Positions 20,320-38,482 of a stretch of 60,514 nucleotides of DNA are shown piece by piece; position 1 is the first letter of the stretch; the number at the start of each line of letters is the position of its first letter. The notes beneath the pieces are model-generated. The model did no database searches and was not told where the DNA came from. It saw only the letters and a list, made by a program, of their open reading frames with translations. A program made the translations under genes and the position numbers. Origin of the DNA: Candidatus Omnitrophota bacterium (GTDB taxonomy: Bacteria > Omnitrophota > Gorgyraeia > Gygaellales > Profunditerraquicolaceae); assembly GCA_041653115.1 (NCBI GenBank), contig JBAZGA010000008.1, forward strand, positions 1 through 60,514, read 5' to 3'.

Positions 20320-20592
20320 ATGGACTGGAATCCCGAAGTTAAAGCGCGCCTAGAGGCAATGGTGGCAAAAATCCCGGTTTTTCACCGCCATATTACGGAG
20401 GTGGCAGTAATTGAAAGAGCCGAGGAGAATGCCTTAGCCCGCCGGTCAGCGCAAGTGGAAGAACAAGATGTCATCGCCGCCTTTTTTTCCGATGTCCCTT
20501 CTCCCTTTTACAGTATGATGGTCAGGCTGCTTGAACAGTCGGGATTCGATTATAAAAAATACGGTTTTCCCAAGACGCAAAATAAAAAATGA
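20320..20592 (+). CDS. Small helical protein resembling DUF2621 / PCP_red-type domain
   Basis: MDWNPEVKARLE...IPVFHR...AEENA...VEEQDVI pattern resembles this family; by-eye match only. Confidence 0.55.
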   Translation: MDWNPEVKARLEAMVAKIPVFHRHITEVAVIERAEENALARRSAQVEEQDVIAAFFSDVPSPFYSMMVRLLEQSGFDYKKYGFPKTQNKK

Positions 20593-22199: not shown

Positions 22200-22244
22200 C
22201 CCAATGTAAAGCGTCCCGAGCAAATTAGGCCAAAGCGACCAAAG

Positions 22245-23507
22245 ATGAATAAACGAAGAGTAGTGATTACGGGTTTAGGCGTGATTTCCCCTAACGGCAT
22301 TGGTAAAGACAATGTCTGGCAGGCGATGTCTGGGGGCAAATCGGCAGTAAAAAGGGTAGACAGTTTCGATGTTTCCATTTTTAACACAAAAATCGCCGCC
22401 GAGGTCAGGGACTTTGACCCTTTTCGGCTCGGCCTGACCCATGATGAAGTGATGCGCATGGACAGGTACGTGCAGTTTGGCGTGCTTGGCGCGGATATGG
22501 CGATTAAAGATAGCGGGCTGAATTTTTCTAAAGAAGACCCTGGACGTATCGGCATCTGCTTAGCCAATGCCATTTGCGGCACAAAATATATGGAAGAGGA
22601 GTTCGCCCTGGTCACTGACGACGGCAAAAAGCCGATTGACCCGGCCAAGGTGCGGCCGGACCTTTATGACGCGGCAATGTTTAATACGCCTTCCATTGAG
22701 ATTGCCGCGCGTTACGGCCTCCAGGGAATCTGCAATACTTTATCTACGGGCTGCACTGCCGGCACTGATTCTGTGGGTTTTGGCTTAGAGGCGATTCAAG
22801 ACGGAGAACAGGAGATTATGATTTGCGGGGCGGCAGAAGCGCCGATTACCCCGATTACTTTCGGCGCCTTTGACGTGGTAAATGTCCTGGCAGTCAATAA
22901 CGAAGAGCCGGAAAAGGCCTCGCGGCCCTTTGACAAGAAACGCAATGGCTTTGTTTTATCCGAAGGCGCGGGGATTTTAATCCTTGAAGAATTAAACCAT
23001 GCCCTGAAGCGCAATGCCTATATTTACGCCGAAGTCCTGGGCTTTGGCACCAGCTGCAATGCCTATCATATGACGGATTTGCCGGCAGACGGCACAGCCA
23101 TGGCTAATTGTATTAAGCTGGCCATAGCCGATGCCGGAATTAAAGCGCGGGAAATCGATTATATCAATGCCCACGGCTCCTCTACCAAGATGAATGATAT
23201 TTTCGAAACCGCTGCTTACAAAACGGTCTTTGGCGATTATGCCTATAAGCTCCCGGTGAGCTCCCTAAAGTCGATGATCGGGCATCCTCTGGCTGCGGCT
23301 AATGCCATAGAAATGACCGTCTGCGCGCAGATTTTCGCCAAGAATCTACTCCCTCCGACGATAAACCAGGAGGAGAAAGACCCTTTATGCGATTTGGATT
23401 ATATCCCGAATGTGGCGCGGGAGAAAAAAGTGAAGATGATTATCAAGACTGCCAGCGGCTTCTCGGGAATTCACTCCGCGCTAATTATCAAAAGGTTTGC
23501 AGGATAA
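22245..23507 (+). CDS. Type II PKS ketosynthase alpha (KS)
   Basis: RRVVITGLG, MDRYVQF, active site LSTGCTAGTDSVG (KS-alpha STGCT), SRPFDKKRNGFV, DYINAHGSST, SSLKSMIGH. Confidence 0.9.
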   Translation: MNKRRVVITGLGVISPNGIGKDNVWQAMSGGKSAVKRVDSFDVSIFNTKIAAEVRDFDPFRLGLTHDEVMRMDRYVQFGVLGADMAIKDSGLNFSKEDPGRIGICLANAICGTKYMEEEFALVTDDGKKPIDPAKVRPDLYDAAMFNTPSIEIAARYGLQGICNTLSTGCTAGTDSVGFGLEAIQDGEQEIMICGAAEAPITPITFGAFDVVNVLAVNNEEPEKASRPFDKKRNGFVLSEGAGILILEELNHALKRNAYIYAEVLGFGTSCNAYHMTDLPADGTAMANCIKLAIADAGIKAREIDYINAHGSSTKMNDIFETAAYKTVFGDYAYKLPVSSLKSMIGHPLAAANAIEMTVCAQIFAKNLLPPTINQEEKDPLCDLDYIPNVAREKKVKMIIKTASGFSGIHSALIIKRFAG

Positions 23508-24740
23508 ATGGAAAAAACAGCAATTACCGGCTTAGGAATAGTAGCACCCTCAGGCATCGGCCGCAGGCAATTCTGGGCGAATATCAGGGCCGGCCGCTCT
23601 TTTATCAAAGAGATTAATCGTTTTGACGCCTCCCTTTACCCGTCGCATATCGCCGGCCAGATTGACGAATTAAATAAATACAGCACTGTCTCCGAGCGGC
23701 TCTTGAAAAAAATGGATACTTTTTCGCATATGGCATTGATTGCCGCGGAGCTGGCGCTGCAGGATGCCGGGGTCGAGATTAGAAAAGAAGACCCTAACCT
23801 CGTCGGCATATTTTTAGGCAATGCTATCGGCGGCTGGCTCTATGCCGAGACAGAGCTGCGCGATATGTACATTGAAGGCCGCGAAGGCGTCTCTCCTTAT
23901 ATGGCCTCAGCCTGGTTTCCGGCTGCGCCCCAGGGCCAAGTCTCCATTTATTACGGGATCAAGGGTTTTTCCAAGACTGTGGTCGCTGACAGGGCAAGTT
24001 CCCTGGAAGCGATTGGTTATGCCCGCAAGACTTTAAGCAAGGGAAAATTAAATCTGATTTTAGCCGGCGGTATGGAAGCGCCGGTTACGCCTTACGCGCT
24101 TTTATGCTGCAATACTTACGGCGGGCTCTCTACAGATAATGCGCACCCGGAGAGCGCTTACCGGCCTTTTGACCGCAAGCGCAGCGGTTTTGTCATTGGA
24201 GAAGGCGCCGGGATTATGGTGATGGAGAGCGTAGAGCGGGCCAAGAAACGCAATGCCACTATCTGGGCGGAGGTATCCGGCTACGGCACCAGCTGCGACG
24301 GAGTTGACCGCATTCAACCGGATGTTTCCGGAAAAGAATTAGCCCGGGCCATGCGCATGGCTTTGCTGGATGCCAAAATTACGCCTGAACAAATCGACTA
24401 CATCAGTTTAGACGGCTTAGCCGTAGAAATCTGGGATAAAAGCGAAGTGAATGCGATAAAAGAAGTTTTCGGCGCCAGCGCTAAAAAAATCCCGGTCAGC
24501 TGCCCGAAAACGATGTTCGGCAACCTGCTCGGCGCCTCGGGCGCAGTGGATTTAATCATTACCATTCTGGCGATGGAGCATAATTTAATTCCGCCGACAC
24601 TTAATCTGGACGACCCGGACTTAAACGGGCTGAATTATATCAAACAGGAAGCTAAAGAAGGAAAAATTAATAAGGCGATGATTATCTCGCGCGGCAGAGG
24701 CGGGATAAATTCAGTTTTGGTAGTTGAGAAAGGAGCTTAA
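23508..24740 (+). CDS. Type II PKS chain-length factor (KS-beta)
   Basis: ITGLGIVAPSG, AWFPAAPQGQVSI, VADRASSLEAIGYAR (no Cys), YRPFD, SLDGLA in place of AHG; starts directly after the KS-alpha stop (TAAATG). Confidence 0.88.
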   Translation: MEKTAITGLGIVAPSGIGRRQFWANIRAGRSFIKEINRFDASLYPSHIAGQIDELNKYSTVSERLLKKMDTFSHMALIAAELALQDAGVEIRKEDPNLVGIFLGNAIGGWLYAETELRDMYIEGREGVSPYMASAWFPAAPQGQVSIYYGIKGFSKTVVADRASSLEAIGYARKTLSKGKLNLILAGGMEAPVTPYALLCCNTYGGLSTDNAHPESAYRPFDRKRSGFVIGEGAGIMVMESVERAKKRNATIWAEVSGYGTSCDGVDRIQPDVSGKELARAMRMALLDAKITPEQIDYISLDGLAVEIWDKSEVNAIKEVFGASAKKIPVSCPKTMFGNLLGASGAVDLIITILAMEHNLIPPTLNLDDPDLNGLNYIKQEAKEGKINKAMIISRGRGGINSVLVVEKGA

Positions 24741-24744
24741 AGCA

Positions 24745-26205
24745 ATGAAGATTCTTTTTGTGATGCCGAAAGTCGGCGCCTGGGCTACGCACGGGATACA
24801 CCGTTCGCCGAACCAGCTCTATGCGCACTGGGCAGCCTATGTGCGGGAGAGGGGTTATGCTGATGTGGCGGTGATTGACGGCAAAGCCGAGCAGATTCCC
24901 ATGGATGAACTGGTGGAGCGGGTGAAAAGTAAAAACCCCGATGTAGTAGTAATGGGCGAGCAGCTGCACGGCTACGGCGGATACGGAGTCTTAAGGCATT
25001 TTAAGGAAGCAGCGCAAAAGATTAAACGCGCACTCCCGAAAACAAAGATAATCCTGGGCGGTTTATGGTATTCGGCGATGCCCGTACCGACCCTGGAAGA
25101 GAACCCGGAAGTAGATTTCGTGGTCATGGGCGAAGAAGAGTCCTTCGGAGATTTAATTGAGGCGATAGATAAGAATAAGGATTTAAAAGACGTGGGCGGA
25201 GTGACTTCTCGCCTGGACGGAAAAATCGTCATGGGGCCGCATAAGCCGCTCCTGGAAGATTTGGATAAACTCCCCTTGCCGGCATATGATTTATTTCCCA
25301 TGGATAAATACGTCGGCCACACTTACTGGAAGCCGTTTGTGGATATGGTTACTTCCCGCGGCTGCCCGTCCGCGTGCACTTTCTGTTACGAGTGGGACCA
25401 GTTTGACCCGCGCTCCCCGTCGGACTTCTTGAAATGGCGCGCCAAATCACCGGAACGCGTGATTGAAGAAATGGAGCTCCTGCAGAACAAATACGGGACC
25501 AAGGTGGTAGTTATCCAGGACGACAATTTTAACGTTGACCCGGCACGCGTGAAAAAATTCTGTGAATTAAAAAAGCAGAAAAAGATAGATATCAAATGGG
25601 TTTCCCTGGGCCGGGCGATCGACTGGGTGAACTGCGAGTCCATCCTTCCTTTAATGAAGGAGACAGGGCTTTTTATGGGTGTATTCGGCATCGAGGTGAC
25701 CACGCAGTCGGAGCTGAAGAAAATCGCCAAAGGCATCACCATTGAGCAGATTCAAAAGACGATTGAAATCCTGCGTAAGCACGATATCGCCATTGTCGCC
25801 GACATTATGATGGGTTTTGATTACGATACCGAGGCGATTGTCAAGCAGCGCTTTGAATTCACCGATGCGGTTGACCCGGATATTCTCTGGGTCGGTTATG
25901 TCACGCCGGCGCCGAACTCTCCGATGTGGCGGATTGCCTTAAAGAAGAACTGGATTGACCCGAAAAAAGTGGATTTCAGCACCTGGGACTTTCTGCACCC
26001 GGTCATTCCTACCGACTACCTGACGATTGAGGATTTAGGCCGGCTGGGCTCCTGGTGTATGCGCGAATTCTTCTCCAAACCGGGCAGAATTAACCGGATT
26101 ATGGAGAGTAATTTTGACCCCCTGGCCAAGCTTTGCTTCAAGGATGTGATGGACGGCATTAATAAATGGGAAGCAGCCGCGACCAAGGGCGAAGTGCAGA
26201 TATAA
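24745..26205 (+). CDS. Cobalamin-dependent radical SAM enzyme
   Basis: N-terminal B12-binding-type Rossmann domain (PDVVVMG, IILGG, DFVVMGEEE), LPLPAYDL, TSRGCPSACTFC, DDNFN; ATG 24745 after AAGGAG preferred over TTG 24724. Confidence 0.88.
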   Translation: MKILFVMPKVGAWATHGIHRSPNQLYAHWAAYVRERGYADVAVIDGKAEQIPMDELVERVKSKNPDVVVMGEQLHGYGGYGVLRHFKEAAQKIKRALPKTKIILGGLWYSAMPVPTLEENPEVDFVVMGEEESFGDLIEAIDKNKDLKDVGGVTSRLDGKIVMGPHKPLLEDLDKLPLPAYDLFPMDKYVGHTYWKPFVDMVTSRGCPSACTFCYEWDQFDPRSPSDFLKWRAKSPERVIEEMELLQNKYGTKVVVIQDDNFNVDPARVKKFCELKKQKKIDIKWVSLGRAIDWVNCESILPLMKETGLFMGVFGIEVTTQSELKKIAKGITIEQIQKTIEILRKHDIAIVADIMMGFDYDTEAIVKQRFEFTDAVDPDILWVGYVTPAPNSPMWRIALKKNWIDPKKVDFSTWDFLHPVIPTDYLTIEDLGRLGSWCMREFFSKPGRINRIMESNFDPLAKLCFKDVMDGINKWEAAATKGEVQI

Positions 26206-26227
26206 AATTTTAAGCGGAGGTTATGCA

Positions 26228-26464
26228 ATGGACACCAAAGCAAAAATTAAAGAAGTTTTAGTGAATTTATTAAAGGTCAGGCCGGAAGAGCTGAAGGACG
26301 AAATCAATCTCACCGATTCTATCGGCGTGGATTCTACGGAAATGGTAGAGACCGTGATTGCCCTGGAAAAAGCCTTCTCTACCAAGCTTAGCCCGCAGGA
26401 AATCACCAAGTTCTCAAGCATTAATGATATCGAAAAAATAATTCAGTCAAAGCTGGGCAAATAA
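26228..26464 (+). CDS. Acyl carrier protein
   Basis: 78 aa, acidic, IGVDSTEMVE phosphopantetheine serine motif. Confidence 0.9.
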   Translation: MDTKAKIKEVLVNLLKVRPEELKDEINLTDSIGVDSTEMVETVIALEKAFSTKLSPQEITKFSSINDIEKIIQSKLGK

Positions 26465-26466
26465 TA

Positions 26467-27267
26467 ATGCAGATAATTGACTTAAGTTTGCCGATTGACG
26501 AAAAGGCGTTTGAAGTCCATAAGGTCGATATTGAACGCACTTCCCATGCCGCGGGTGTAGAAAAATTCAACCGCGTGATTATGGGCAAGACCCTGGCCGG
26601 AAAAATACGCTATTCTTTAGGCCGGCGCATCATCAAAAAAGAGGATTTACCTGACCAGGAATTCTTATCGCTGGAAGTAGTGCATGCTCCGGTGCATATC
26701 GGCACCCACCTGGATTATTCCTTCCATTACGGCTCAAAATCAGAAGGCCGCGCCTCCAAAACCGCAGAAGAGATTCCTTTAGAATGGTGCTATGCTGACG
26801 GGGTAAAGCTGGATTTAACGCAGAAAAAGCCGGAGGAAACGATTAAGGCGGAAGATTTAGAGCAGGCCTTAAAAAAGCTCAATTATTCCTTAAAAAGTTT
26901 GGATATCGTGCTCTTAAATACCGGAGCGGATAAGTTCTACGGCTCGCCGAAATATTTTTCCGAATACCCGGGAGTAGATATTTCGGCAATTGATTATCTC
27001 TTGGACAGGGGGGTAAAGGTTTTCGGCGTGGATACAATGGGGATTGACCGGCCTTATAAGTTTATGCTCAAGGAATTCTCGGCCACTAAAGACCCCAAGA
27101 CATTTTACCCGGCGCATTTTTACGGCCGGAAAAGGGAATTCATCCACATCGAGCGCTTAGCCCGTCTGAATCAGTTGCCGGGCTTTGGATTCAAAGTGAT
27201 TTGCTTTCCGGTAAGGATTAAAAATACCGGGGCTGCCTGGTCAAGAGTGGTGGCGATAACCGATTAA
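26467..27267 (+). CDS. Polyketide cyclase, kynurenine-formamidase-like family (OxyN/ZhuJ/DpsY type)
   Basis: IIDLSLP, HIGTHLDYSFHYG, PLEWCYADGV, YPG, GVDTMGID, HIERL, GAAWSRVVA. Confidence 0.85.
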   Translation: MQIIDLSLPIDEKAFEVHKVDIERTSHAAGVEKFNRVIMGKTLAGKIRYSLGRRIIKKEDLPDQEFLSLEVVHAPVHIGTHLDYSFHYGSKSEGRASKTAEEIPLEWCYADGVKLDLTQKKPEETIKAEDLEQALKKLNYSLKSLDIVLLNTGADKFYGSPKYFSEYPGVDISAIDYLLDRGVKVFGVDTMGIDRPYKFMLKEFSATKDPKTFYPAHFYGRKREFIHIERLARLNQLPGFGFKVICFPVRIKNTGAAWSRVVAITD

Positions 27268-27272
27268 GGGGG

Positions 27273-27319
27273 AAATTAGTTCCTCGCCCCGGCTTTTCGC
27301 CGGTGCTCGGAATAAATTT
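27273..27319. repeat. Intra-operon rod-like hairpin
   Basis: AAATT/AATTT, GTTCC/GGAAT, CCGGC/GCCGG around a TTTTC loop; CTCG on both arms gives a tandem UC/UC mismatch. Confidence 0.65.
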
Positions 27320-27345
27320 TCTATTACTAGGGAGGAGGAAAATTT

Positions 27346-27786
27346 ATGGGTCATACATGTAATTCGATAATCATCAATGCTCCTTACGATAAGGTCTTTG
27401 ATATTTCTAATGATATCCCGCGCTGGACAGAATTATTCGGCACGGAATATCAGAAGGCAGAAGTATTGGAAAAGAAAGACAATAAGATTACTTTCCGCCT
27501 GACCGATGAAGAAGGCAAGTCCTGGGTCTCCCGGCGGCTTTTGTTCAAGGATAAATACCTTGCTTATGCCCAGCGCCACGAGCCGCTCTTTCCCTTCAAA
27601 TACATGAAAATTATTTGGCTTTATACGCCAAAAGGCCAAGGCGTAGAGTTGGCATGGATTCAACACTTTGAAATGGATGAAAAAGCCAAGTTCAATGACC
27701 AGCAGGTTGAAGGTTTTATCAATCAGGGCTCGCAGCATAACCTGAAAATTTTCAAAGCGATTATTGAAAAAGAAGCAGGCAAGTGA
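27346..27786 (+). CDS. Monodomain aromatase/cyclase (TcmN/WhiE-ORFVI/ZhuI type, SRPBCC fold)
   Basis: HTCNSIIINAPYDKVFDISNDIPRWTELF-TEY, WVSRR, YAQRH, PFKYMKIIW, WIQHFEM align by eye with the TcmN ARO/CYC domain. Confidence 0.88.
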   Translation: MGHTCNSIIINAPYDKVFDISNDIPRWTELFGTEYQKAEVLEKKDNKITFRLTDEEGKSWVSRRLLFKDKYLAYAQRHEPLFPFKYMKIIWLYTPKGQGVELAWIQHFEMDEKAKFNDQQVEGFINQGSQHNLKIFKAIIEKEAGK

Positions 27787-28907
27787 AGAAATCCACTTTT
27801 ATCATTCTTTGCCTCGAGGGAGCAGTGCTTTCTTTTAATGTAGCTGCCTGCGCTGCTCTAATTCCTTCGATTGCCGCTGATTTTGCTCTTTCCCAGCTTT
27901 TTGTCGGCAGGATTACCTGGGTTTATATGCTCCCCTACGGCCTTGCCGCGCTCTTCTACGGCCCCCTGGTGCGGCTGATTGATGCTAAAAAGGTAGAGTT
28001 GCTTTGCCTGAGCTTATTTTCATTGGCTAATCTTTTGGCAGCTTTCTCTAAAAGCATCTCTGCTCTTTTTTTCGCCAGGTTTATGATGGGCCTCTTTGGC
28101 GCGTCGGTTATACCGCTGGGGATTATATTGATTGCCAGGCATGTGGAAGAGCAGAAGCGCGGTAAGTCTATCGGGATTTTTTTCGGGGCAACCTTTGCCG
28201 CATCGCTTTTAGGGCTGTTCTTAAGCGGCATCATCCATTGGCGCCTGATTTTTCTTATCCCCGGGCTCTTTGGCTTTTTCTTATGCGCGGTAATATACTT
28301 ATATCTACCCAGCTTTAAGCGGGACACCGGAGTATTTAAGCTGAATTATTTGCCGGCGCTTGGCAATAAGAGCTTCTTAGCGATATTTATCTATATCTTC
28401 TTTATCAGCCTGATTTATCACGGCGTACAGCAGTGGCTGGCAGTCTATTTTTCCACGAGCTTTGGATTTACCCAGCTTTTGATCAGCGGCCTGATTACGC
28501 TGACCAGTTTAAGCGGAATTTTCGGGGAATTTTTTGGCGGGGCATTGGCAGATTCCCTGGGCAGGGTAAAGACCATCAATTTAGGGATTTTACTGATGAT
28601 TTTAAGCATTCTCTCTCTGGGTTTTAAGTCTCCGCTTTTTGTGCTGATACCAATAATGATTGCCTGGGGCCTGGGCTGGACTTTTAACCACGCCGGGCTC
28701 TCCACGATGCTTACGGATTTACCGCAGGGTTTCTTGAATGAAGCAGCCAGCTTAAACAGCGGGGTGCGTTTTATCTCCGGAGGCCTGGGCGTAGCTATCG
28801 GCGGTATCTTTATCCAGAAGAGTTTTGTTTTTAGTTTTATTATTTTCGCCCTGGGTTTAAGCGCCCTGTTTTTATTGGAAAGAAAATTATTGATCGCAAA
28901 AAGTTAA
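27783..28907 (+). CDS. MFS transporter (probable product exporter)
   Basis: About 12 hydrophobic helices, FFARFMMG, GALADSLGR; GTGA overlap with the aromatase. Confidence 0.88.
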   Translation: MKKSTFIILCLEGAVLSFNVAACAALIPSIAADFALSQLFVGRITWVYMLPYGLAALFYGPLVRLIDAKKVELLCLSLFSLANLLAAFSKSISALFFARFMMGLFGASVIPLGIILIARHVEEQKRGKSIGIFFGATFAASLLGLFLSGIIHWRLIFLIPGLFGFFLCAVIYLYLPSFKRDTGVFKLNYLPALGNKSFLAIFIYIFFISLIYHGVQQWLAVYFSTSFGFTQLLISGLITLTSLSGIFGEFFGGALADSLGRVKTINLGILLMILSILSLGFKSPLFVLIPIMIAWGLGWTFNHAGLSTMLTDLPQGFLNEAASLNSGVRFISGGLGVAIGGIFIQKSFVFSFIIFALGLSALFLLERKLLIAKS

Positions 28908-28981
28908 TCCTCGCACAAGATGGGAGACGGAGGATCAATTTTCGGACGAGTGATAGCGGTAAAATTGAGGAGGGTAAGAAG

Positions 28982-29758
28982 ATGAGCCAGGATTTAAAAG
29001 GGAAAAGCGCGATTATTACGGGAGCCAGCCGCGGAATAGGTAAAGCCATTGCCTCTACCTGCGCCAGTTTAGGGATTAATTTGACGATTGCCGCGCGCCA
29101 GGAAGGGCCGTTAAAAGAAGCTGCCGATGAGATTGCCAAAAAATATAAAGTCCAGGTTCTGCCTCTGGTTTGCGATGTCTCAAAGCTGGAAGATTTAGAG
29201 AATCTGGTCAATAAAACCAGGGAAAAGTTCGGCAAAATCGATATTCTGATTAATAATGCCGGAGTCTCCAGCCAGTATCCGTTCCCCGAGCAGCCAATGG
29301 AAGACATCGAAAAATTAGCCCACACCAATTACCTGGGTTATGTGCGTTTAATCCGCTTAGTGATTAATGAGATGATTAAAAATAAGTCCGGCGCCATCAT
29401 TAACATGGTCTCCGGCTCAACGCTCTGCGACCCCCTGCCGCGCAATTTCCTCGTTTATAGCTCTTTAAAAGTAGGCTTACGCTCCTTTTTAAAAGGGCTC
29501 TTCTGGGAGATCCGCGACCACGGGATTAAAATTACTTCGCTTTTGCCTGGCGTAACGGATACCGACCTCACCGGAAAGTTAAAAGAAGTCACTACGGATA
29601 CTTCGCGCTTGATGACTACCGAAGCGATTGAAAACGCGGTGAAGTTTGCCTTGACTGTGCCGGCAAATGTTTGCCCGTTAGAAATCGCGATTATCAATCA
29701 GCAGACGCCCTGGACTGCGCCGGTTATTCCCTTTAAGCAAACGCATCCGCAGAAATAG
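28982..29758 (+). CDS. Short-chain dehydrogenase/reductase (possible ketoreductase)
   Basis: TGASRGIG, INNAG, YSSLK (YxxxK). Confidence 0.9.
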   Translation: MSQDLKGKSAIITGASRGIGKAIASTCASLGINLTIAARQEGPLKEAADEIAKKYKVQVLPLVCDVSKLEDLENLVNKTREKFGKIDILINNAGVSSQYPFPEQPMEDIEKLAHTNYLGYVRLIRLVINEMIKNKSGAIINMVSGSTLCDPLPRNFLVYSSLKVGLRSFLKGLFWEIRDHGIKITSLLPGVTDTDLTGKLKEVTTDTSRLMTTEAIENAVKFALTVPANVCPLEIAIINQQTPWTAPVIPFKQTHPQK

Positions 29759-29760
29759 TT

Positions 29761-30150
29761 ATGGATAAGCAGGAGATTAAAAACTTAAAGAAACGCTATC
29801 TTATCTGGTTCTATAAGACCAGCAAAGAGGCGCTGGATAAAATTGAGCGCAAATTTACCCAGGCGGAAATCGATAAATTTATCCTCAAAGAGCTGCGTAA
29901 ACAAAGCAAGCCGGAATTAGAGAAGTTCATTCTTGATTTTGAAACTTACATTACCGATAAAGAAAAGGCCGGCCAGGAATTAAAATATGAAAACGGTAAA
30001 TTAAAGCCGGATTACCAGTTTTTAGTCTTCAAATTAGCGGCAATTGAAAAAGCGATTTCTAAAGAGCTCGGTAAAAAGGCCTTAGATGAAATCAAGGCGC
30101 TCTATGAAATGGAGATGGCCGAGCGGATCTTAAAAAGCACGGAGCACTGA
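29761..30150 (+). CDS. Hypothetical helical protein
   Basis: Coupled between the SDR and the amidohydrolase (TGATG overlap); no recognised motif. Confidence 0.7.
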   Translation: MDKQEIKNLKKRYLIWFYKTSKEALDKIERKFTQAEIDKFILKELRKQSKPELEKFILDFETYITDKEKAGQELKYENGKLKPDYQFLVFKLAAIEKAISKELGKKALDEIKALYEMEMAERILKSTEH

Positions 30151-31061
30151 TGATTATAGACAGTCATAGCCACTGGTTACCAAAAGAAATCATTGAGAAT
30201 GCCCACTTCTTCCATAAGGGCTGGGGGGATCTGGAGGCGCAGATAAAAATGATGACTGAAGCCGGCATTGACAAAGCAGTCCTGTCATACCCGACTTCTG
30301 ACGCGCACCTGAAGCTGGGCAGTATCAGCTTAACCAGCCGCATTTACAATGACTATGTAGCAAAGCTTTGCCGGCACCATGCGGATAAGTTTATTGGCGC
30401 GGCAGTCTTGCCGGTAGATAGTAATGAGGAGCTGATTGGTGAGTTTAAGCGTGTTACAGGAGAGCTGGGGTTTAAGGCGCTCTCTCTGGCTACCAGCTAT
30501 AACGGCAAATACCTTGATGACGCGATATTTTTACCTATATATAAAGTAGCGCAGGAGAAGAATATCCCGATTTTTGTGCATTCACAGATTGTGCACCCGA
30601 TCGGCTCGGAGCGCGTGCAGGACCCGCTTTTAACGCCGGTAATCGAATATGTCTTTGATACGACGATTTGTATCGGCAAGCTCTTGATGTCGGGAGTCTT
30701 GAAGGATTATCCGGATCTGAAGTTTATCTTTGCCAGTTTTGGCGGCGCGATTCCTTATTTGCAGCACCGCTTTGATGCTACTTATCAGATGCTGCGGGGG
30801 ATGAATTTTGTCAAAGACCTGGGCAAAAACCCCACGGAATACCTGAAGCATATTTATGTGGATACCGGAGGCGATAAGACCAGGGCGAATTATCAGCTGG
30901 CTTTGGAATTCCTGGGGCCGGAGCATATTCTCTGGGGCTCGGATTGGCCGGCGAAAAAAGATGTCGCAGGCGGCATTGCCGCGGTAAAAGATTTGGATAT
31001 TAGCGAAGCAGATAAAAATAACATTTTAGGCGGGAACATCGCCCGAATTTTAGCTCTTTAA
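30150..31061 (+). CDS. Amidohydrolase_2 family protein (ACMSD / aromatic-acid decarboxylase-like)
   Basis: IIDSHSH, PIFVH, FGGAIPY, YVDT, ILWGSDWP, ILGGNIARIL. Confidence 0.85.
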   Translation: MIIDSHSHWLPKEIIENAHFFHKGWGDLEAQIKMMTEAGIDKAVLSYPTSDAHLKLGSISLTSRIYNDYVAKLCRHHADKFIGAAVLPVDSNEELIGEFKRVTGELGFKALSLATSYNGKYLDDAIFLPIYKVAQEKNIPIFVHSQIVHPIGSERVQDPLLTPVIEYVFDTTICIGKLLMSGVLKDYPDLKFIFASFGGAIPYLQHRFDATYQMLRGMNFVKDLGKNPTEYLKHIYVDTGGDKTRANYQLALEFLGPEHILWGSDWPAKKDVAGGIAAVKDLDISEADKNNILGGNIARILAL

Positions 31062-32867: not shown

Positions 32868-33617
32868 ATGCAGATGCATAAAGAAGTACATTTGACCGGC
32901 AAAGACCTGACCCAGATGGTGCAATTGCGGCCGCAGGATGTGGGTAAATACGCGATTGTGCCTGGTCCAAAGGACAGGCTGGATGTCTTGATGAAGAAAC
33001 TCGAAAATCCAATGAAGAATTTTTCCTTTATGGAATATACGATGTATACCGGAATCTATCAGGGGATAAAAATCACCGCGATTAACGGCGGCAGATTTTC
33101 TACGGATACTTCGATTACCACGGAAGTAATGTGCAATGCCGGCATCCAGGATATTATCCGCATCGGTACTTGCGGCGCGCTGGATGAGAAGATTAAAGTC
33201 GGCGATTTAATCGTCGTGGATAAAGTCATCCGCGGAGACGGAGTCACGCCTTATTATGTGGATAAGAATTTTGAGACCAAGGCCGATAAGAAGCTCGCTG
33301 ATACCTTATATGAAGTGGCTAAAGGCATGGGAATAACTGTACACCGCGGCACTACCTGGACTACGGATGCGCTTTTACGCGAAACCCGGGAAATCGTGGA
33401 AGCCAAGCGTAAAGAAGGCGCGATTGCCGTGGATATGGTCTCCTCAACACTCCTGACCATTTGCCAGACCTACAATATCAGGGCCGGCTCAATCCTGGCA
33501 GTAAGCGATAATGTAATTACCGGGGAAATGGGCTTTATGAATCCGCTTTATTATATGGCAGAGGCACATTTAATCAGCATTGCCTTGGAAACCGTGAAAA
33601 AATTAGACGGGGTATGA
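32868..33617 (+). CDS. Nucleoside phosphorylase (PNP/UDP family)
   Basis: IVPGPKDR, IIRIGTCGAL, HRGTTWTTDALLRET, AVDMVSS, AVSDN. Confidence 0.9.
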   Translation: MQMHKEVHLTGKDLTQMVQLRPQDVGKYAIVPGPKDRLDVLMKKLENPMKNFSFMEYTMYTGIYQGIKITAINGGRFSTDTSITTEVMCNAGIQDIIRIGTCGALDEKIKVGDLIVVDKVIRGDGVTPYYVDKNFETKADKKLADTLYEVAKGMGITVHRGTTWTTDALLRETREIVEAKRKEGAIAVDMVSSTLLTICQTYNIRAGSILAVSDNVITGEMGFMNPLYYMAEAHLISIALETVKKLDGV

Positions 33618-34540
33618 TGAGATTTTCGCCGCTATTCTGGCCGGTAGAATTAAAAGGCCGGACAATTTATATTCTTGATGAGACTCTGCTGCCGCATAAG
33701 GTAAAGCATATCCAGGCCAGAAATTATCAGCAAGCAGTGACGGCAATCAAACAGATGAAGACGCGCGCAGTAGGTCAAGTGCTTTTAGTAATGTACACAT
33801 TCCTGCTGGAAGCTAAGAAAAATCATTCCCTGGCGCATTTAAAAAAAGTTGCTCATGCATTCTGCGCCAGCCGGCCAACGCTCTCTTTTCGCTCTCTGAC
33901 CGAAATGGTCTTAGCTTGGGCAAAACAGGGAGCGCCTTTAGAAAAATATATCTTTGGTTTTTTAGAGATACTAAAAGAAAAACGCATCCAGCAGGCTAAG
34001 CAAGCCGCAAAATTAATTAAAAATAATGACGTCATCCTGACGCATTGCAATATCAGCGGACAGATGCCTTTAATCGCCGATTTCTGCCGAAAGGATAAGA
34101 AAAAAATCAGTTTTTTTGTCACCGAGACCCGGCCATATTTACAGGGAGCGCGTTTAACTGCCTGGGAATTGAGACGCCAGGGATTTGCAGTGACCTTGAT
34201 TACGGATAATATGGTGGCAGCAGTGATGTCACAGGGAAAAGTGGATAAGGTGATTGTCGGCGCGGATAACCTGGCGCAAAACGGCGATATTGCCAATAAG
34301 GTCGGCACATACCAGATTGCGGTAGTCGCCAGGCATTTTCATATCCCTTTTTATGTGCTCTGCCCGCCGAAATCCGGAGCCAAGAGCGGCGCTGAAATTA
34401 AAATTGAGATGCGTCCGGAAAAGGAAATGCTTTACTTTGACGGACGGCTGATTGCCGCTAAAGGAGTAAGGGGTTATTATCCGGCATTTGACATTACCCC
34501 GCGTAATTTAATTACCCGGCACATTTATTTAGAGGTCTAA
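33614..34540 (+). CDS. mtnA: MtnA-like 5-substituted-ribose-1-phosphate isomerase
   Basis: ILDETLLP, SRPT, ILTHCN, ETRPYLQGARLTAWEL, VGADNLAQNGDIANKVGTY, YPAFDITP. Confidence 0.9.
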   Translation: MMRFSPLFWPVELKGRTIYILDETLLPHKVKHIQARNYQQAVTAIKQMKTRAVGQVLLVMYTFLLEAKKNHSLAHLKKVAHAFCASRPTLSFRSLTEMVLAWAKQGAPLEKYIFGFLEILKEKRIQQAKQAAKLIKNNDVILTHCNISGQMPLIADFCRKDKKKISFFVTETRPYLQGARLTAWELRRQGFAVTLITDNMVAAVMSQGKVDKVIVGADNLAQNGDIANKVGTYQIAVVARHFHIPFYVLCPPKSGAKSGAEIKIEMRPEKEMLYFDGRLIAAKGVRGYYPAFDITPRNLITRHIYLEV

Positions 34541-34541
34541 G

Positions 34542-35543
34542 ATGATATTCGCTAAAGAGAGAAAATTAAGAAAAGAAATGATTGAAATCGGTAAGAGATT
34601 GTATGCTTTACGACTGGTCGCCGCGTCAGGCGGAAACTTAAGCGCCAGGATAGATGAAAGGAATATCCTGGTAACGGCTACGGCTACGGAATTGGGAAAT
34701 TTAAAGTCCGACGATATTATCAGGGTTAATTTAGATAAAGAGACGGATTTAAAAAATCAGCAGCTGACCACGGAATTTCCTTTGCACCGGATGATCTATG
34801 AAAATTTGCCGGCCCGGATTGTAATCCACTGTCATCCGGCTTTAAGCAATGCCTATTTCGCGGTTTATCCCGACTTAAAAGTGCTTACCTTTGAAAGCAA
34901 GCTGCACTTAGGCAATATCCCGGTGATAGAGCAGGATACGCCGGCAGTAAGCAAGCCGGATTTAGTCGTTGCTGCCTTAAATACGAATAATTTAGTGGTG
35001 CTCAAGAATCACGGGGTAGTTAGTCTCGGCAATACCTTTCAGGAGGCGTTTAACTTAGTGGAAACTTTAGAAGAAGCAGTCAGGACTGTGGCCACGGCGC
35101 GGCTCTTTAAGAAAGAAATCGTGGATGATTTAGATAAAGAATTAAAAGCCAGCTTAAAGAGCCAGGAGGCTTATGAGATGTTCTCTACCGAGCATATCCA
35201 GGCGATTGTTGACCTGGCGAATCAGGATGAATTTATTGCTCAAAAAGGCCGGGAATTGGATTTGACCATGGAATATGCGATTAAGCTGGACGGCACAGGC
35301 AAGGCGCATAAATTCACCTTTGAAAAAGGGGAAATTACCAAATTAGAACCCGGCGAGAATGCCCAATTTGTGGCTTCAGCTCCGGCAGAGGTCTGGAAAA
35401 TGATATTTTTAGGAAAACTTGACCCCTTTGTAGCGACAATGCAGGGAAAGATGAAATTAAAAGGCGAATTAGGCAAGCTCTCGCGCTGGTACGTTCCTTT
35501 TAGCCGCCTTTTCGAACTCTTTAAGCAGGTTAAAATCAAATGA
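34542..35543 (+). CDS. Class II aldolase (FucA/Ald2 type) fused to a C-terminal SCP2 lipid-binding domain
   Basis: GGNLSAR, TTEFPLH, IHCHP, LKNHGV; C-terminal VWKMIFLGKLDPFVATMQGKMKLKG is a typical SCP2 signature. Confidence 0.85.
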   Translation: MIFAKERKLRKEMIEIGKRLYALRLVAASGGNLSARIDERNILVTATATELGNLKSDDIIRVNLDKETDLKNQQLTTEFPLHRMIYENLPARIVIHCHPALSNAYFAVYPDLKVLTFESKLHLGNIPVIEQDTPAVSKPDLVVAALNTNNLVVLKNHGVVSLGNTFQEAFNLVETLEEAVRTVATARLFKKEIVDDLDKELKASLKSQEAYEMFSTEHIQAIVDLANQDEFIAQKGRELDLTMEYAIKLDGTGKAHKFTFEKGEITKLEPGENAQFVASAPAEVWKMIFLGKLDPFVATMQGKMKLKGELGKLSRWYVPFSRLFELFKQVKIK

Positions 35544-36973
35544 AGCAGAAAATCATTAATCCTGGGACCGGAGAAACAGTCAGCGAAGTTGATATTTTTC
35601 AGGCCCAAGATATAGAAGCGGCAATTGTTGCGGCACGCAAAAGCTTTGACAATGGCGCCTGGAGGAATCTTCTCTTGCCAAAGCGAAAAAAAGTATTACT
35701 AAAAATTGCCGAGGGGATTTTAGAGCAGGCGCAGCAGCTGGCAAAGTTAGAGACCCTGAATACCGGCAAGCCGATTAAAGAAACCACTTTTATGGATATA
35801 CCTTCAGCCAGCCGCTCCTTTGGGTATATTGCCGAGAATTTCGAAGATTTTTTAAAAGAGGAAACAATTAACGCCGAGAACGCTAAAAGTCACCTGGTGC
35901 GCGAGCCAATCGGCGCGGTAGTTTTAATTATACCCTGGAATTATCCGCTTTTAATCGCCTCCTGGAAACTTGCTTCGGCTCTGGCCGCCGGAAACAGCGT
36001 CATCCTAAAGCCCTCCAGCCTCACGCCTTTGACTGCCTTGGAATTAGAGAAGATCGCGCAAAGAGCCGGGCTTCCTGACGGCGTGTTAAAGGTAGTGGTA
36101 GCTAAAGGTTCTGAAGCAGGTGAAGCGCTCTGCAGCGATAAGAGAGTGGATATGATTTCTTTTACCGGCAGCAATGCCGCAGGAAAAGATATCGTTACTT
36201 ATGCCGCTAAAAATGTTAAGAAGCTGATTATGGAATTAGGCGGCAAGTCCGCGAGCATTATTTTAAAAGACGCGGACTTGGAATTGGCCGTGAATGGCTC
36301 GCTCTGCTCCATCTTTTTGAACCAAGGCCAGATGTGCACGGCGATGTCGCGGATATTTATCGCGGATGAGGTTTATGATAAATTCACGGCAGATTTTGTA
36401 GAGAAGGCAAAACGGATTAAATTAGGGGACGGCTTGAATTATGAGACCCAAATGGGGCCGCTGATTTCCCGCGAACAGCGGAAGAAGGTCGTTGCTTTTA
36501 TAGAAAAAGCAACGATTGAAGGCGCAAAGATACTTTGCGGCGGGAAAATACCGGATGACCCCGAGCTAAAGGGGGGTTTCTTCTTTGAGCCGACAGTCTT
36601 AACGCAGGTAAAACCGGGAATGCAGATTTTCCAGGAAGAAGTTTTTGGGCCGGTGGTTTGTTTGAGCCGCTTTTCCAGGCTGGAAGAGGCAGTGAACCTG
36701 GCCAATGCCACGGATTTCGCCTTGGCAGCTTGTATCTGGTCTCAAGATAGCGCAAAAGCTAAAGAGTTAGCCAAAGAAATTAATGCCGGCACAGTCTGGA
36801 TTAATACTTACGGGATGTTTTATAATGAAGTCCCTTACGGCGGATTTAAAGAGAGCGGTTTTGGCAAAGAATTGGGCAAAGAAGGCTTTTTAGAATATAC
36901 GCGCCTGAAAAATATCTTTCTTGACCAGGCCAAAGATGCCAAGCCATTGGTTAATTACTGGTACGGTCTTTAA
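35540..36973 (+). CDS. NAD(P)-dependent aldehyde dehydrogenase
   Basis: PWNYP, LKPS, FTGS, ELGGKS, QGQMCTA, EEVFGPV, PYGGFKESGFG. Confidence 0.95.
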   Translation: MKQKIINPGTGETVSEVDIFQAQDIEAAIVAARKSFDNGAWRNLLLPKRKKVLLKIAEGILEQAQQLAKLETLNTGKPIKETTFMDIPSASRSFGYIAENFEDFLKEETINAENAKSHLVREPIGAVVLIIPWNYPLLIASWKLASALAAGNSVILKPSSLTPLTALELEKIAQRAGLPDGVLKVVVAKGSEAGEALCSDKRVDMISFTGSNAAGKDIVTYAAKNVKKLIMELGGKSASIILKDADLELAVNGSLCSIFLNQGQMCTAMSRIFIADEVYDKFTADFVEKAKRIKLGDGLNYETQMGPLISREQRKKVVAFIEKATIEGAKILCGGKIPDDPELKGGFFFEPTVLTQVKPGMQIFQEEVFGPVVCLSRFSRLEEAVNLANATDFALAACIWSQDSAKAKELAKEINAGTVWINTYGMFYNEVPYGGFKESGFGKELGKEGFLEYTRLKNIFLDQAKDAKPLVNYWYGL

Positions 36974-36976
36974 ATT

Positions 36977-38482
36977 ATGAATATCAAAGAAATTTTAGAA
37001 GCCAGGGTTAAAACACACGCCGATAAAGTTGCAGTTATCTTTAAGGGTGAAAATTTAACCTTTCGACAATTACGGGATAATGCTTTTTGCCTGGCCAATA
37101 GCTTGCTTGATTTAGGCCTGAAAAAAGGCGATAAGGCGGCGATTTACCTGCCGAGCTGGCCGGAGTATATTTACAGTTATTTAGCGCTCTGGTCAATCGG
37201 TGTTACGGCTGTGCCTTTGGATTTTATGCTCACCCAGGATGAGCTGATCTCCTGTGTTACTCATTCAGAGGCAAAAATTCTTATTGCTAAGCCCAAAGCC
37301 AGCATTTCCTTAGCGGCAATCAAAGAAAACTGCCCGAGTTTAAAAGAGATTATTGCCTGTAAAGATACAAAGCAGGAGTTTCTTGCTTTCGAAGAATTAT
37401 TAAAAAAAGGCGCGCATGCAATCCCGGCGGGTAAAATCAGTGACCAGGATTACGCGATTATTTTCTATACTTCAGGAACTACCGGCCGGCCCAAAGGAGT
37501 CTTGATAAACTACCGGCAGTTAGAAGCGCCGCCAAAGGCAATGACGCATTTTGTGGATTTTACGGATAAGGACATTGCTTTATGCTCGCTTCCTTTTTCG
37601 CATATCGGCGGTCTGATTTATTTGCAGAACTGTTTGTCTTTCGGCATCAGTATTATTTTGATGGAGCATTTTATGCCCGGGGAATTCCTGAAAAATATCC
37701 AGAAGTTTAAGGTGACCTGTTTCTGGGTAGTGCCTTCGATGTATTACGCGGTTTTACAATTAAAAGAATTCGAGAGTTTTGATTTAGGCAGCTTACGCTG
37801 GGTAGTGACATTCGGCGCTTCCAGCTCTCCGGATGCCTTACGCCGTTTTCAGCAGTATTGCCCCAAGGCGCACCTTTTGAATGGCTGGGGCCTGACTGAA
37901 ACCAATGCCCCGACCACAGTGATTCCGCTTGGCTCGACTAAAATTGAAAGCGTCGGCCGTGCAGCGCCCTGGATAGAAGTAAAAATCCTTGATGAAAATG
38001 GTAAAGAATTGCCTGTTGGCCGGGTAGGCGAGGTAGTGGTAAAAGGCTGGGTAGTGACTGACGGTTATTACAAAGACCCGCAGGCTACTGCCCAAGCTAT
38101 CCGCAATGGCTGGTTTCATACCGGCGATTTGGGAAAGTTTGACCCTGAAGGCGATCTTTATATCGTCGGCAGGATTAAGGAGATGATTAAGGTCGCCGGT
38201 GAAATCGTCTTTGAGCCGGAAGTAGAAGCCGCAATCCATAAACACCCGGATATTGCCGAGGTAGCTGTGATTGGCGTTGCCGATAAATTAAGGGGCGAAC
38301 TCCCCAAGGCGTTTATCGTTGCCAAAGAAGGCAAGACCTTAGACGAGGAGGCCTTGCGTTATTTCTGCCGCGAACACCTTGCCCACTTTAAAATCCCCCA
38401 CTATTTTGAATTCCGGGATGCTCTGCCCAAGAACCGCACGGGAAAAATCGATAAGGAAAAATTACGAAGCGGCCATGAATAG
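36977..38482 (+). CDS. AMP-forming acyl-CoA synthetase
   Basis: YTSGTTGRPKG, GWGLTE, WFHTGDLG, GRIKEMI, LPKNRTGKI. Confidence 0.93.
   Translation: MNIKEILEARVKTHADKVAVIFKGENLTFRQLRDNAFCLANSLLDLGLKKGDKAAIYLPSWPEYIYSYLALWSIGVTAVPLDFMLTQDELISCVTHSEAKILIAKPKASISLAAIKENCPSLKEIIACKDTKQEFLAFEELLKKGAHAIPAGKISDQDYAIIFYTSGTTGRPKGVLINYRQLEAPPKAMTHFVDFTDKDIALCSLPFSHIGGLIYLQNCLSFGISIILMEHFMPGEFLKNIQKFKVTCFWVVPSMYYAVLQLKEFESFDLGSLRWVVTFGASSSPDALRRFQQYCPKAHLLNGWGLTETNAPTTVIPLGSTKIESVGRAAPWIEVKILDENGKELPVGRVGEVVVKGWVVTDGYYKDPQATAQAIRNGWFHTGDLGKFDPEGDLYIVGRIKEMIKVAGEIVFEPEVEAAIHKHPDIAEVAVIGVADKLRGELPKAFIVAKEGKTLDEEALRYFCREHLAHFKIPHYFEFRDALPKNRTGKIDKEKLRSGHE

Follow-up and report, generated by a model that had tools for sequence, protein, structure and literature searches.

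The 60,514-nucleotide stretch analyzed here (hereafter the window) covers positions 1 to 60,514 of contig JBAZGA010000008.1 from the Candidatus Omnitrophota bacterium assembly GCA_041653115.1. Just past its middle lie five genes encoding a nucleoside phosphorylase, an MtnA-like sugar-phosphate isomerase, a class II aldolase fused to an SCP2 domain, an aldehyde dehydrogenase (ALDH), and an acyl-CoA ligase (Table 1). The first-pass annotation, made from the sequence alone, had marked five coupled genes here, and the open reading frames (ORFs) coincide exactly with its boundaries, all on the forward strand. The junctions between them measure, in order, -4, +1, -4, and +3 nt, and all five genes are translationally coupled. 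None of the five proteins reached an NCBIfam equivalog cut-off and only the isomerase passed a subfamily model, marking them as divergent members of their families; all functions given for the module are predictions from sequence. Scans for promoters and terminators between 30.8 and 40.3 kb stayed at shuffle level (22 vs 15.5 promoters and 13 vs 13.0 terminators), and searches for RNA runs carrying the window sequence returned none, all matches being to groundwater and subsurface DNA metagenomes.

Table 1. Predicted features of the window and of related loci (L numbers), with gene orders where informative. ACP, acyl carrier protein; AFOR, aldehyde:ferredoxin oxidoreductase; CLF, chain-length factor; DHAP, dihydroxyacetone phosphate; KS, ketosynthase; LeuRS, leucyl-tRNA synthetase; PKS, polyketide synthase; rSAM, radical S-adenosylmethionine (SAM) enzyme.
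Locus	Feature	Position	Strand	Evidence or remarks
Window	Nucleoside phosphorylase, hexameric NP-I (PNP_UDP_1) family, purine-type, distinct subfamily	32868..33617	+	249 aa; PF01048 2.4e-36
Window	MtnA/DrdI-type sugar-1-phosphate isomerase (5-deoxy-/5-methylthio-ribose-1-P -> ribulose-1-P)	33614..34540	+	308 aa; PF01008 (IF-2B) 9.3e-58
Window	Class II (Zn) aldolase domain (aa 1-~195), ~15-aa linker, SCP2 domain (aa ~212-333)	34542..35543	+	333 aa; Aldolase_II (PF00596) 2e-34, aa 12-182; SCP2 1.3e-06, aa 245-313
Window	Non-acylating NAD(P)+ aldehyde dehydrogenase (aldehyde -> acid)	35540..36973	+	477 aa; PF00171 (Aldedh) 3.4e-165
Window	FadD-like ANL acyl-CoA ligase (acid -> CoA thioester)	36977..38482	+	501 aa; PF00501 (AMP-binding) 5.3e-86 and PF13193 (AMP-binding_C)
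Window	LsrF-type thiolase (3-hydroxy-5-phosphonooxypentane-2,4-dione + CoA -> DHAP + acetyl-CoA)	18422..19210	+	NF006081 equivalog, 360.2 bits > 297
Window	Zn-dependent polyol/secondary-alcohol dehydrogenase	19213..20211	+	PF08240 and PF00107; coupled to the LsrF gene
Window	Type II PKS-like operon	20320..31061	+	DUF2621, PanE, TIGR04076 repeat protein, KS, CLF, B12-rSAM, ACP, PF04199 cyclase, SRPBCC, MFS, SDR, 129-aa protein, Amidohydro_2
Window	B12-binding (class B) radical SAM enzyme	24724..26205	+	PF02310 and PF04055; BchE 212 bits, HpnJ 155 bits, both below cut-off
Window	RlmN radical SAM gene, downstream of the ligase	38379-39521, likely ATG 38475		380 bits > equivalog 290
Window	Three genes not conserved in relatives	31228-32825		188-aa protein; 153-aa membrane protein with two Fer4_5 motifs (31878-32339); 156-aa secreted protein
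Window	YkuD-AccA-PadR	15048-17323		PadR regulator at 16808
L023	YkuD-AccA-PadR	2425-4727		KS-less locus
L005	crcB and DUF190	7514-8234		directly upstream of phosphorylase
L007	crcB and DUF190	5155-5900		directly upstream of phosphorylase
L019	Tungsten-type AFOR and ferredoxin	13914-16219		after ALDH
L019	Small IF-2B-like gene	9519-9989
L020	Small IF-2B-like gene	9534-10007
L022	Small IF-2B-like gene	9543-10019
L023	Small IF-2B-like gene	9535-10014
L025	Small IF-2B-like gene	9531-10004
L026	Small IF-2B-like gene	9529-10011
L021	Small IF-2B-like part fused to isomerase	8472-9992		506 aa
L022	Class IV aminotransferase	7812-8615		group B
L025	Class IV aminotransferase	7833-8642		group B
L026	Class IV aminotransferase	7819-8634		group B
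L022	MMPL-LolA-like-DUF1302	14912-19667
L023	MMPL-LolA-like-DUF1302	11086-15798
L026	MMPL-LolA-like-DUF1302	12601-17397
L029	MMPL-LolA-like-DUF1302	9942-14842
L019	Gene order			PadR-ligase-B12 rSAM-phosphorylase-isomerase-small isomerase-aldolase::SCP2-ALDH-...-AFOR-SRPBCC-...-PanE-TIGR04076-KS
L020	Gene order			ligase-phosphorylase-isomerase pair-fusion-ALDH-RlmN-...-LeuRS; molybdenum cofactor genes upstream; KS and B12 rSAM not in view
L021	Gene order			CCG iron-sulfur protein-phosphorylase-fused isomerase-fusion-ligase; no ALDH, KS, or rSAM in view
L022	Gene order (complete 1.82-Mb genome)			B12 rSAM (75% identical to the window's)-Amidohydro_2-class IV aminotransferase-isomerase pair-fusion-ALDH-LsrF (78%)-Zn-dehydrogenase-MMPL-LolA-like-DUF1302
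L023	Gene order			YkuD-AccA-PadR-ligase-phosphorylase-isomerase-B12 rSAM-small isomerase-fusion-MMPL-LolA-like-DUF1302; no KS in view
L025, L026	Gene order			PKS operon-B12 rSAM-Amidohydro_2-aminotransferase-isomerase pair-fusion-ALDH; no phosphorylase or ligase in view

The fusion of aldolase and SCP2 domains, already proposed in the first-pass annotation, is borne out by sequence profiles, structure prediction, and conservation. The C-terminus scored 29.1 bits against the SCP2 Pfam model (gathering score 21.3), and a 128-residue profile of this region, built from 22 diverse family members, retrieved SCP2-fold chains from the PDB at every significant rank: 1WFR (Thermus TT1886/SCP2, 7e-7), 2CX7, 3CNU (AF_1534), the mammalian SCP2 set 2C0L/1QND/1C44, and the SCP2 domain of the sec-alkylsulfatase 2YHE, with a lone unrelated chain at E 0.26. 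An AlphaFold2 model computed from a 59-sequence alignment (pLDDT 92.4, pTM 0.87) places a helix-helix-four-strand-helix-helix-strand-helix domain at residues 216-327, separated by a disordered linker (197-202) from an N-terminal domain of FucA fold, for which Foldseek against the PDB returned 2FK5 (TM 0.87) and also DrdA (6BTD). The top 50 Foldseek matches all cover the aldolase domain, so that the fold of the C-terminal domain is assigned from the profile search and from the topology of the model. Within the window's clade, mean pairwise identity is higher in the SCP2 domain than in the aldolase domain (77% vs 68%), which argues that the former is functional and not a relic.

Eleven residues are invariant across 59 fusion proteins (G31, N32, S34, E78, H82, H96, H98, E118, H157, G158, and E177), spanning the phosphate loop, the three Zn-binding His, and the FucA-type Glu (E78/H96/H98/H157 forming the Zn/Glu set). 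Both in sequence and in fold, FucA, OtnC, and DrdA come closest to the aldolase domain, which also weakly matches a haloarchaeal ribulose-1-phosphate aldolase model (51 bits). Because MtnB and APIP structures were not among its PDB matches at E ≤ 0.01 and the MtnB model TIGR03328 was matched well below cut-off (62 bits, cut-off 137), an aldolase is likelier than a dehydratase. E118, part of an F-E motif, has no counterpart in the alignment with YgbL/OtnC, the closest relatives of solved structure, and lies about where FucA has Tyr113 and MtnB/APIP have their catalytic Glu.

More than 1270 homologues of the fusion were found; the best 120, which include the window's own protein, are 65-85% identical, and their named sources are all Omnitrophota/Omnitrophica, with one labelled only 'bacterium'. 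Among the results listed by our literature search on SCP2 and class II aldolases, none described such a fusion.

The phosphorylase falls below the NCBIfam equivalog cut-offs for uridine phosphorylase (122/280 bits), DeoD (92/232), HpnG (54/187), futalosine hydrolase (32/125), and MTAP/MtnP (TIGR01694, 25 bits, cut-off 275), and its top PDB matches are uridine phosphorylases and DeoD purine nucleoside phosphorylases (PNPs). It retains the phosphate-site motifs PGPxDR and RIGTCG. The uracil-binding insertion of uridine phosphorylases is missing and a VSDN motif aligns with the DeoD catalytic Asp, which points to a purine nucleoside substrate; the roles given here to the VSDN Asp and to the E-M-E Glu discussed next are those we take from the Escherichia coli uridine phosphorylase and PNP. 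Where uridine and purine phosphorylases read E-M-E, this subfamily reads D-M-(V/T/A), the second Glu being Val, Thr, or Ala in all 11 aligned family members (residues ~198-204). The residue replaced is the one that binds the ribose 2'/3'-hydroxyls. The subfamily also carries Met at the site of the neighbouring-subunit phosphate Arg.

The isomerase passes the subfamily model TIGR00524 (198 bits, cut-off 185.85) and falls short of both the MtnA equivalog (226/279) and the ribose-1,5-bisphosphate (R15P) isomerase model (115/314). Its top PDB match is the Thermotoga MtnA 1T9K (1.4e-49), and the THCN Cys and GAD Asp are conserved in alignment with the Thermotoga and Archaeoglobus MtnA structures, with a deletion of ~7 residues after THCN. 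The substrates of known MtnA/DrdI-branch members are 5-deoxy or 5-thio sugars. Loci outside the window's clade encode a further, small IF-2B-like protein (156-160 aa) between isomerase and aldolase, overlapping the aldolase start, and at one locus (L021) it is fused to the isomerase. This arrangement suggests a heteromeric isomerase in most of the fusion family; the small protein is lost from the window's clade.

Both downstream enzymes have their catalytic motifs in place. The ALDH keeps its catalytic Glu (ELGGKS) and Cys (GQMCTA), and its nearest NCBIfam models, all below cut-off, are betaine-, aminobutyr-, and phenylacetaldehyde dehydrogenases. Since it is of the irreversible, non-acylating type with both residues intact, we set aside a module running in the reverse, biosynthetic direction, from DHAP and a lipophilic aldehyde to a 5'-extended nucleoside. 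The ligase retains motifs A3, A7, and A10. The first-pass label of a long-chain or aryl-type ligase holds as a family resemblance and goes no further: the protein scored 449.9 bits against PRK06187 (cut-off 476), and its PDB neighbours range from oxalyl-CoA and malonyl-CoA synthetases to FadD5, FadD13, feruloyl-CoA synthetase, and 4-coumaroyl-CoA synthetase (4CL), a spread that points to no single substrate. At L019 a tungsten-type AFOR and a ferredoxin follow the ALDH, apparently as a second, anaerobic means of aldehyde oxidation.

Two further genes, situated upstream of the PKS-like operon in the window, encode an LsrF-type thiolase, whose second-best model is ADH synthase (197 bits), and a Zn-dependent dehydrogenase whose nearest models, all below cut-off, are threonine-3-, galactitol-1-phosphate-5-, and scyllo-inosose dehydrogenases. 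At L002 and L003 the pair stands between aldolase and ALDH, which indicates that both genes belong to the module; at L022 an LsrF gene (78% identity) directly follows the ALDH, and the dehydrogenase gene accompanied LsrF at all loci examined. Pfam scans of the window found none of lsrK, lsrG, lsrB, or lsrACD near the LsrF-like gene. The substrate of LsrF is 3-hydroxy-2,4-pentanedione-5-phosphate, which has a methyl ketone end. This compound is 5-deoxyribulose-1-phosphate dehydrogenated at C4, and a polyol-type dehydrogenase is coupled to the thiolase; a methyl-ended sugar, and hence 5'-deoxyadenosine, would thus be the simplest substrate of the module. Our literature search found no paper linking LsrF with 5-deoxyribulose, nor any describing this diketone as made by dehydrogenating 5-deoxyribulose-1-phosphate.

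The PKS-like operon between this pair and the module has an Arg at the active-site Cys position of its CLF and includes a B12-binding radical SAM enzyme that is 75-91% identical across Omnitrophota and is the presumed source of 5'-deoxyadenosine. A paralogue type, 36% identical, adjoins the module at L019 and sits inside it at L023. We compared 33 window proteins by tblastn with 17 GTDB species loci. In the window's clade (loci labelled Omnitrophota in 13 cases and Planctomycetales in two, L010 and L012; protein identities 55-91%), the module directly follows the PKS-like operon (KS/CLF/B12-rSAM/ACP) at all 11 loci with enough upstream flank, and the B12-rSAM gene is present at all eight whose flank reaches that far. 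The linkage survives at L015, where the aldolase is 41% identical and the order is rearranged to PadR-ligase-phosphorylase-isomerase-aldolase-ALDH followed by the PKS operon.

An exhaustive search of 1.84 billion representatives returned 42 proteins at E < 1e-30, of which ~24 are 50%-identity clusters of full-length fusions, 31-41% identical to the query and falling into four groups. Their contexts, viewed over 8-10 kb to either side of the aldolase gene or as far as the contig runs, show that every one of KS/CLF, phosphorylase, ALDH, and ligase can be dispensed with in one lineage or another; at L022, KS, phosphorylase, and ligase were all missing within 10 kb. Isomerase and aldolase genes are adjacent at every fusion-bearing locus with flank and form the invariant core, whose steadiest further neighbours are the B12 radical SAM gene and the ALDH, with the ligase also frequent. 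Beyond the window's clade, the B12-rSAM gene was found at L015, L019, L022, L023, L025, and L026, at L023 between two isomerase genes. The module's steadier partner is therefore the radical SAM gene, not the KS pair. Co-occurrence of the fusion with the PKS, as envisaged in the first-pass annotation, holds at every window-clade locus with enough flank but not generally, since fusion modules without a KS in view occur at L020-L023; a module standing apart from the PKS, which that annotation had named as evidence against its own proposal, is thus not the rule in the window's clade but is found in part of the fusion family.

Two features recur among the more distant relatives. At group B loci the place that the phosphorylase occupies in the window, between Amidohydro_2 and isomerase, is taken by a class IV aminotransferase that resembles BCAT and aminodeoxychorismate lyase but scores below all cut-offs. 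In several lineages the module is followed by an HpnN-like MMPL/sterol-sensing transporter, a LolA-like protein (TP_0789/DUF1329), and a DUF1302 protein, which suggests that a lipophilic product is exported to the outer membrane; the window has an MFS transporter only. Among unfused aldolases, the closest share 52-66% identity with the group B catalytic domain. Two of their loci (L027 and L028) hold bare phosphorylase-aldolase pairs at the same chromosomal site, with a type IV pilus secretin upstream and RlmN/LeuRS downstream, another (L029) combines the unfused aldolase with ligase, LsrF, a Zn-dehydrogenase fragment, and MMPL genes, and at L024 the aldolase stands alone.

We give about an even chance to the reading that the module is a dedicated shunt from 5'-deoxyadenosine, and probably also 5'-methylthioadenosine (MTA), to DHAP and acetyl-CoA, serving a high-flux B12 radical SAM enzyme. 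Assigned by family membership and intact catalytic residues, the steps would run as follows. The purine-type phosphorylase would free adenine and 5-deoxyribose-1-phosphate, the MtnA-type isomerase would convert the latter to 5-deoxyribulose-1-phosphate, and the Zn aldolase would split this ketose phosphate into DHAP and acetaldehyde, or into DHAP and 2-methylthioacetaldehyde when the pathway starts from MTA. Oxidation of the aldehyde by the ALDH and activation by the ANL ligase would then yield a CoA thioester. Since aldol cleavage of 5-deoxyribulose-1-phosphate is thermodynamically unfavourable (K about 1e-4; PMC6079011), these two enzymes may serve as a pull on the equilibrium. In a parallel exit, proposed on purely chemical grounds, the Zn-dehydrogenase would oxidise the C4 hydroxyl of 5-deoxyribulose-1-phosphate to 3-hydroxy-2,4-pentanedione-5-phosphate, which the LsrF-type thiolase and CoA would split into DHAP and acetyl-CoA. 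High flux through the cobalamin radical SAM enzyme would yield a lipophilic product (a polyketide or a lipid), to be exported by the MFS or MMPL transporter. 5'-Deoxyadenosine inhibits radical SAM enzymes (PMC6079011), and the module would be kept beside this one because high flux would bring inhibition by its own by-product.

The logic of the DHAP shunt that the first-pass annotation saw in the phosphorylase-isomerase-aldolase trio is upheld by the domain content and the intact catalytic residues. Of its two proposals for the whole module, the conversion of radical SAM waste to acetyl-CoA is the better supported, although supply of that acetyl-CoA to the PKS is neither needed nor shown. The purine-type phosphorylase, the MtnA-branch isomerase, and the surviving reduced pairs would all fit disposal of a by-product co-regulated with a high-flux radical SAM step, and the persistence of phosphorylase and unfused aldolase alone at the reduced loci L027 and L028 is expected of housekeeping detoxification rather than of tailoring. 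Modules with neither KS nor rSAM in view (L020 and L021) also count in favour of this reading.

Several observations weigh on the other side. Acetate needs no FadD-like ligase, and the ligase, which is not Acs-type, is retained where the ALDH is missing (L021 and L023). With two exits the module would arrive at the same acetyl-CoA twice, an apparent redundancy. Besides being unlike MtnP, the phosphorylase has another residue in place of the ribose-binding Glu throughout its subfamily; L022, L025, and L026 have no phosphorylase beside the isomerase but the class IV aminotransferase instead, and no isomerase was found near the pairs at L027 and L028. Salvage of a C2 aldehyde also leaves the SCP2 domain unexplained, despite its 77% conservation in the clade. 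We speculate that this domain most likely binds a lipophilic substrate or product and would hold the disposal enzymes in complex with the radical SAM step, an anchoring role for which UbiJ/UbiT, the SCP2 proteins that organise ubiquinone enzymes, suggest a model. In UbiJ/UbiT, SCPx thiolase, MFE-2, and sec-alkylsulfatase, SCP2 is attached to, or works with, enzymes acting on hydrophobic substrates; here, unlike in those systems, SCP2 is joined to a sugar-phosphate aldolase, an enzyme expected to act on hydrophilic substrates.

That same domain, together with the ligase type, was given as the ground for the proposal favoured in the first-pass annotation, in which a radical SAM enzyme would add a 5'-deoxyadenosyl group to a double bond of an SCP2-held hydrophobic polyketide or lipid intermediate and the module would then strip adenine and DHAP (C1'-C3') from it. 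ALDH and ligase would convert the remaining R-CH2-CHO to R-CH2-CO-SCoA, an oxygen-independent two-carbon extension derived from SAM (C5'-C4'). The SCP2 domain is indeed real, fused, and strongly conserved, the ligase is FadD-like and not Acs-like, a radical SAM gene lies among the module genes at L023 and next to them at L019, and at L022, L023, L026, and L029 the genes after the module encode MMPL/sterol-sensing transporters together with LolA-like and DUF1302 proteins. There are precedents in HpnH/HpnG (adenosylhopane) and MqnE/MqnB (aminofutalosine), which pair radical adenosylation with a PNP_UDP_1-family enzyme, and in the futalosine route C5' and C4' end up in the product. However, we found no positive evidence for this proposal and consider it unlikely. 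No HpnH- or MqnE-type, that is, adenosylating, enzyme is present, the radical SAM genes nearby being class B (BchE/HpnJ-like) and RlmN; we know of no precedent for adenosylation by class B cobalamin radical SAM enzymes. The phosphorylase lies far below the HpnG (54/187) and futalosine hydrolase (32/125) models, and the LsrF equivalog, encoded inside the module at L002 and L003, implies a methyl-ended substrate. Modules also occur with no rSAM or KS in view (L020 and L021), and the minimal pairs of the reduced loci L027 and L028 lack SCP2. Those pairs, in which phosphorylase and aldolase persist alone, would also suit general catabolism of purine nucleosides (adenosine, inosine, or guanosine), running from ribose-1-phosphate through ribulose-1-phosphate to DHAP and glycolaldehyde, then glycolate and glycolyl-CoA, as might be expected of a scavenging or predatory lifestyle. 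Although the phosphorylase resembles uridine and DeoD-type enzymes more than MTA phosphorylases and the aldolase has its weak match (51 bits) to the haloarchaeal ribulose-1-phosphate model, this route is rather improbable: the isomerase belongs to the MtnA/DrdI branch (TIGR00524 passed; R15P isomerase 115/314), LsrF chemistry requires a 5-deoxy end, the ribose-binding Glu is lost, and the tight radical SAM linkage is left unexplained.

A closer involvement of the radical SAM enzyme would follow if it first acted on the nucleoside or the sugar phosphate, for instance as a C-methylase at C5', so that the module delivered propionyl-CoA or branched short acyl-CoA starters. OxsB and the iterative methylases CysS and TokK act on substrates comparable to the proposed targets, the rSAM gene stands between two isomerase genes at L023 and directly before the phosphorylase at L019, a non-Acs ligase suits an acid other than acetate, and the CLF has Arg at its active-site position. 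We nevertheless regard this as very unlikely: the LsrF equivalog speaks for a methyl ketone free of such modification, C3-C5 acids do not account for SCP2, and KS-less versions retain the module. The least probable of the alternatives, in our judgement, is anaerobic methionine or sulfur salvage from MTA, with the aldolase-fold protein as an MtnB-like dehydratase or with a methylthio-acid CoA ester processed to methanethiol; at group B loci the class IV aminotransferase would make methionine from its keto acid. This aminotransferase (BCAT/PabC-like) does stand directly before the isomerase at L022, L025, and L026, E118, about at the MtnB/APIP catalytic Glu position, is invariant, and DmdB-type ANL ligases activate methylthio acids. 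Yet the MtnB model is matched at only 62/137 and APIP/MtnB structures not at E ≤ 0.01, the FucA-type Zn-binding Glu is invariant, no enolase-phosphatase is present, and the aminotransferase is missing from the window's clade.

The three-step shunt and the order phosphorylase-isomerase-aldolase-ALDH are already published, in the DHAP shunt, 5-deoxyribose disposal, and the fluoroacetate pathway. The DHAP shunt/5-deoxyribose disposal pathway (MtnP or MtnN with MtnK/DrdK; MtnA/DrdI; Ald2/DrdA) is described from Rhodospirillum rubrum, extraintestinal Escherichia coli, and Bacillus thuringiensis, including phosphorylase-initiated versions (PMC6079011, PMC10986504). The Omnitrophota module would follow the same logic in its three steps (nucleoside to sugar-1-phosphate, MtnA-type isomerisation, class II metal-aldolase cleavage to DHAP and an aldehyde), and one operon encodes all three of the corresponding folds, but its phosphorylase is a relative of hexameric-type PNPs and uridine phosphorylases instead of MtnP, its aldolase carries SCP2, and an LsrF/Zn-dehydrogenase pair is attached. 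Whereas the aldehyde is there reduced or left to general metabolism, here dedicated genes would oxidise it and activate it with CoA, and the module is embedded in a supercluster of B12-radical SAM, PKS, and lipid-export genes. The reaction proposed for LsrF is identical to its own in the autoinducer-2 (AI-2, lsr) pathway (diketone phosphate + CoA -> DHAP + acetyl-CoA); that pathway differs in that here the lsr neighbours are missing and the diketone would come from dehydrogenation of 5-deoxyribulose-1-phosphate. With HpnH/HpnG and MqnE/MqnB the module shares a radical SAM step alongside PNP_UDP_1-family purine removal, lipophilic substrates, and, in related loci, HpnN-like MMPL exporters, but neither of those routes uses an isomerase or an aldolase, and an adenosylating-type enzyme is missing here. 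A study of Omnitrophota polyketides mentions only antiSMASH 'ladderane' calls.

The fluoroacetate pathway of Streptomyces cattleya comprises the fluorinase FlA, the phosphorylase FlB, an isomerase, an aldolase, and fluoroacetaldehyde dehydrogenase (PMC10491745). It shares with the module the order of phosphorylase, MtnA-type isomerase, fuculose-type aldolase, and ALDH acting on a 5'-substituted 5'-deoxyadenosine; here a CoA ligase and SCP2 are added, and a Pfam scan of the ORFs between 8 and 51 kb found no fluorinase/DUF62 domain. Genes for the fluoride channel CrcB and a DUF190 protein lie directly upstream of the phosphorylase at L005 and L007, though not in the window. With these genes beside the phosphorylase at just two of 29 loci and no fluorinase, we rejected a link to fluoride, and their placement is probably incidental.

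The genes flanking the module include a second radical SAM gene, immediately downstream, which we rejected as a pathway enzyme because it encodes RlmN. Its probable start codon overlaps the ligase stop by 8 nt, and RlmN follows the module directly or a few genes on at ten related loci (L002, L005, L007-L009, L011, L020, L026, L028, and L029), a recurrence suggesting that this housekeeping rRNA methylase may be co-transcribed with the module. Many loci share a downstream housekeeping block made up of RlmN, GDSL, a xylose-isomerase-like TIM barrel, LeuRS, and ComEC. On the upstream side, the junction between Amidohydro_2 and phosphorylase, uninterrupted in most relatives, is broken in the window by three non-conserved genes. 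Farther out, YkuD-AccA-PadR precedes the cluster both in the window and at the KS-less L023, and as PadR also heads the cluster at L015 and L019, it is likely the regulator of the whole unit.

If the module does dispose of 5'-deoxyadenosine or MTA, Omnitrophota, which are widespread, tiny, uncultured anaerobes, would handle their radical SAM by-products through an operon-encoded shunt of their own, with CoA thioesters as its end products and a previously undescribed exit through a dehydrogenase and LsrF. The known routes of SAM by-product salvage would thereby be extended, and LsrF would have a function beyond breaking down a quorum-sensing signal. Were adenosyl trimming to prove true instead, it would amount to a new way of building carbon chains from SAM, formally similar to the futalosine route but ending in a thioester. 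The fusion itself, present in more than 1000 metagenomic proteins, physically ties sugar-phosphate chemistry to a lipophilic pathway whose product is conserved like a housekeeping trait, and the ligand of the fusion is probably the shortest route to that product.

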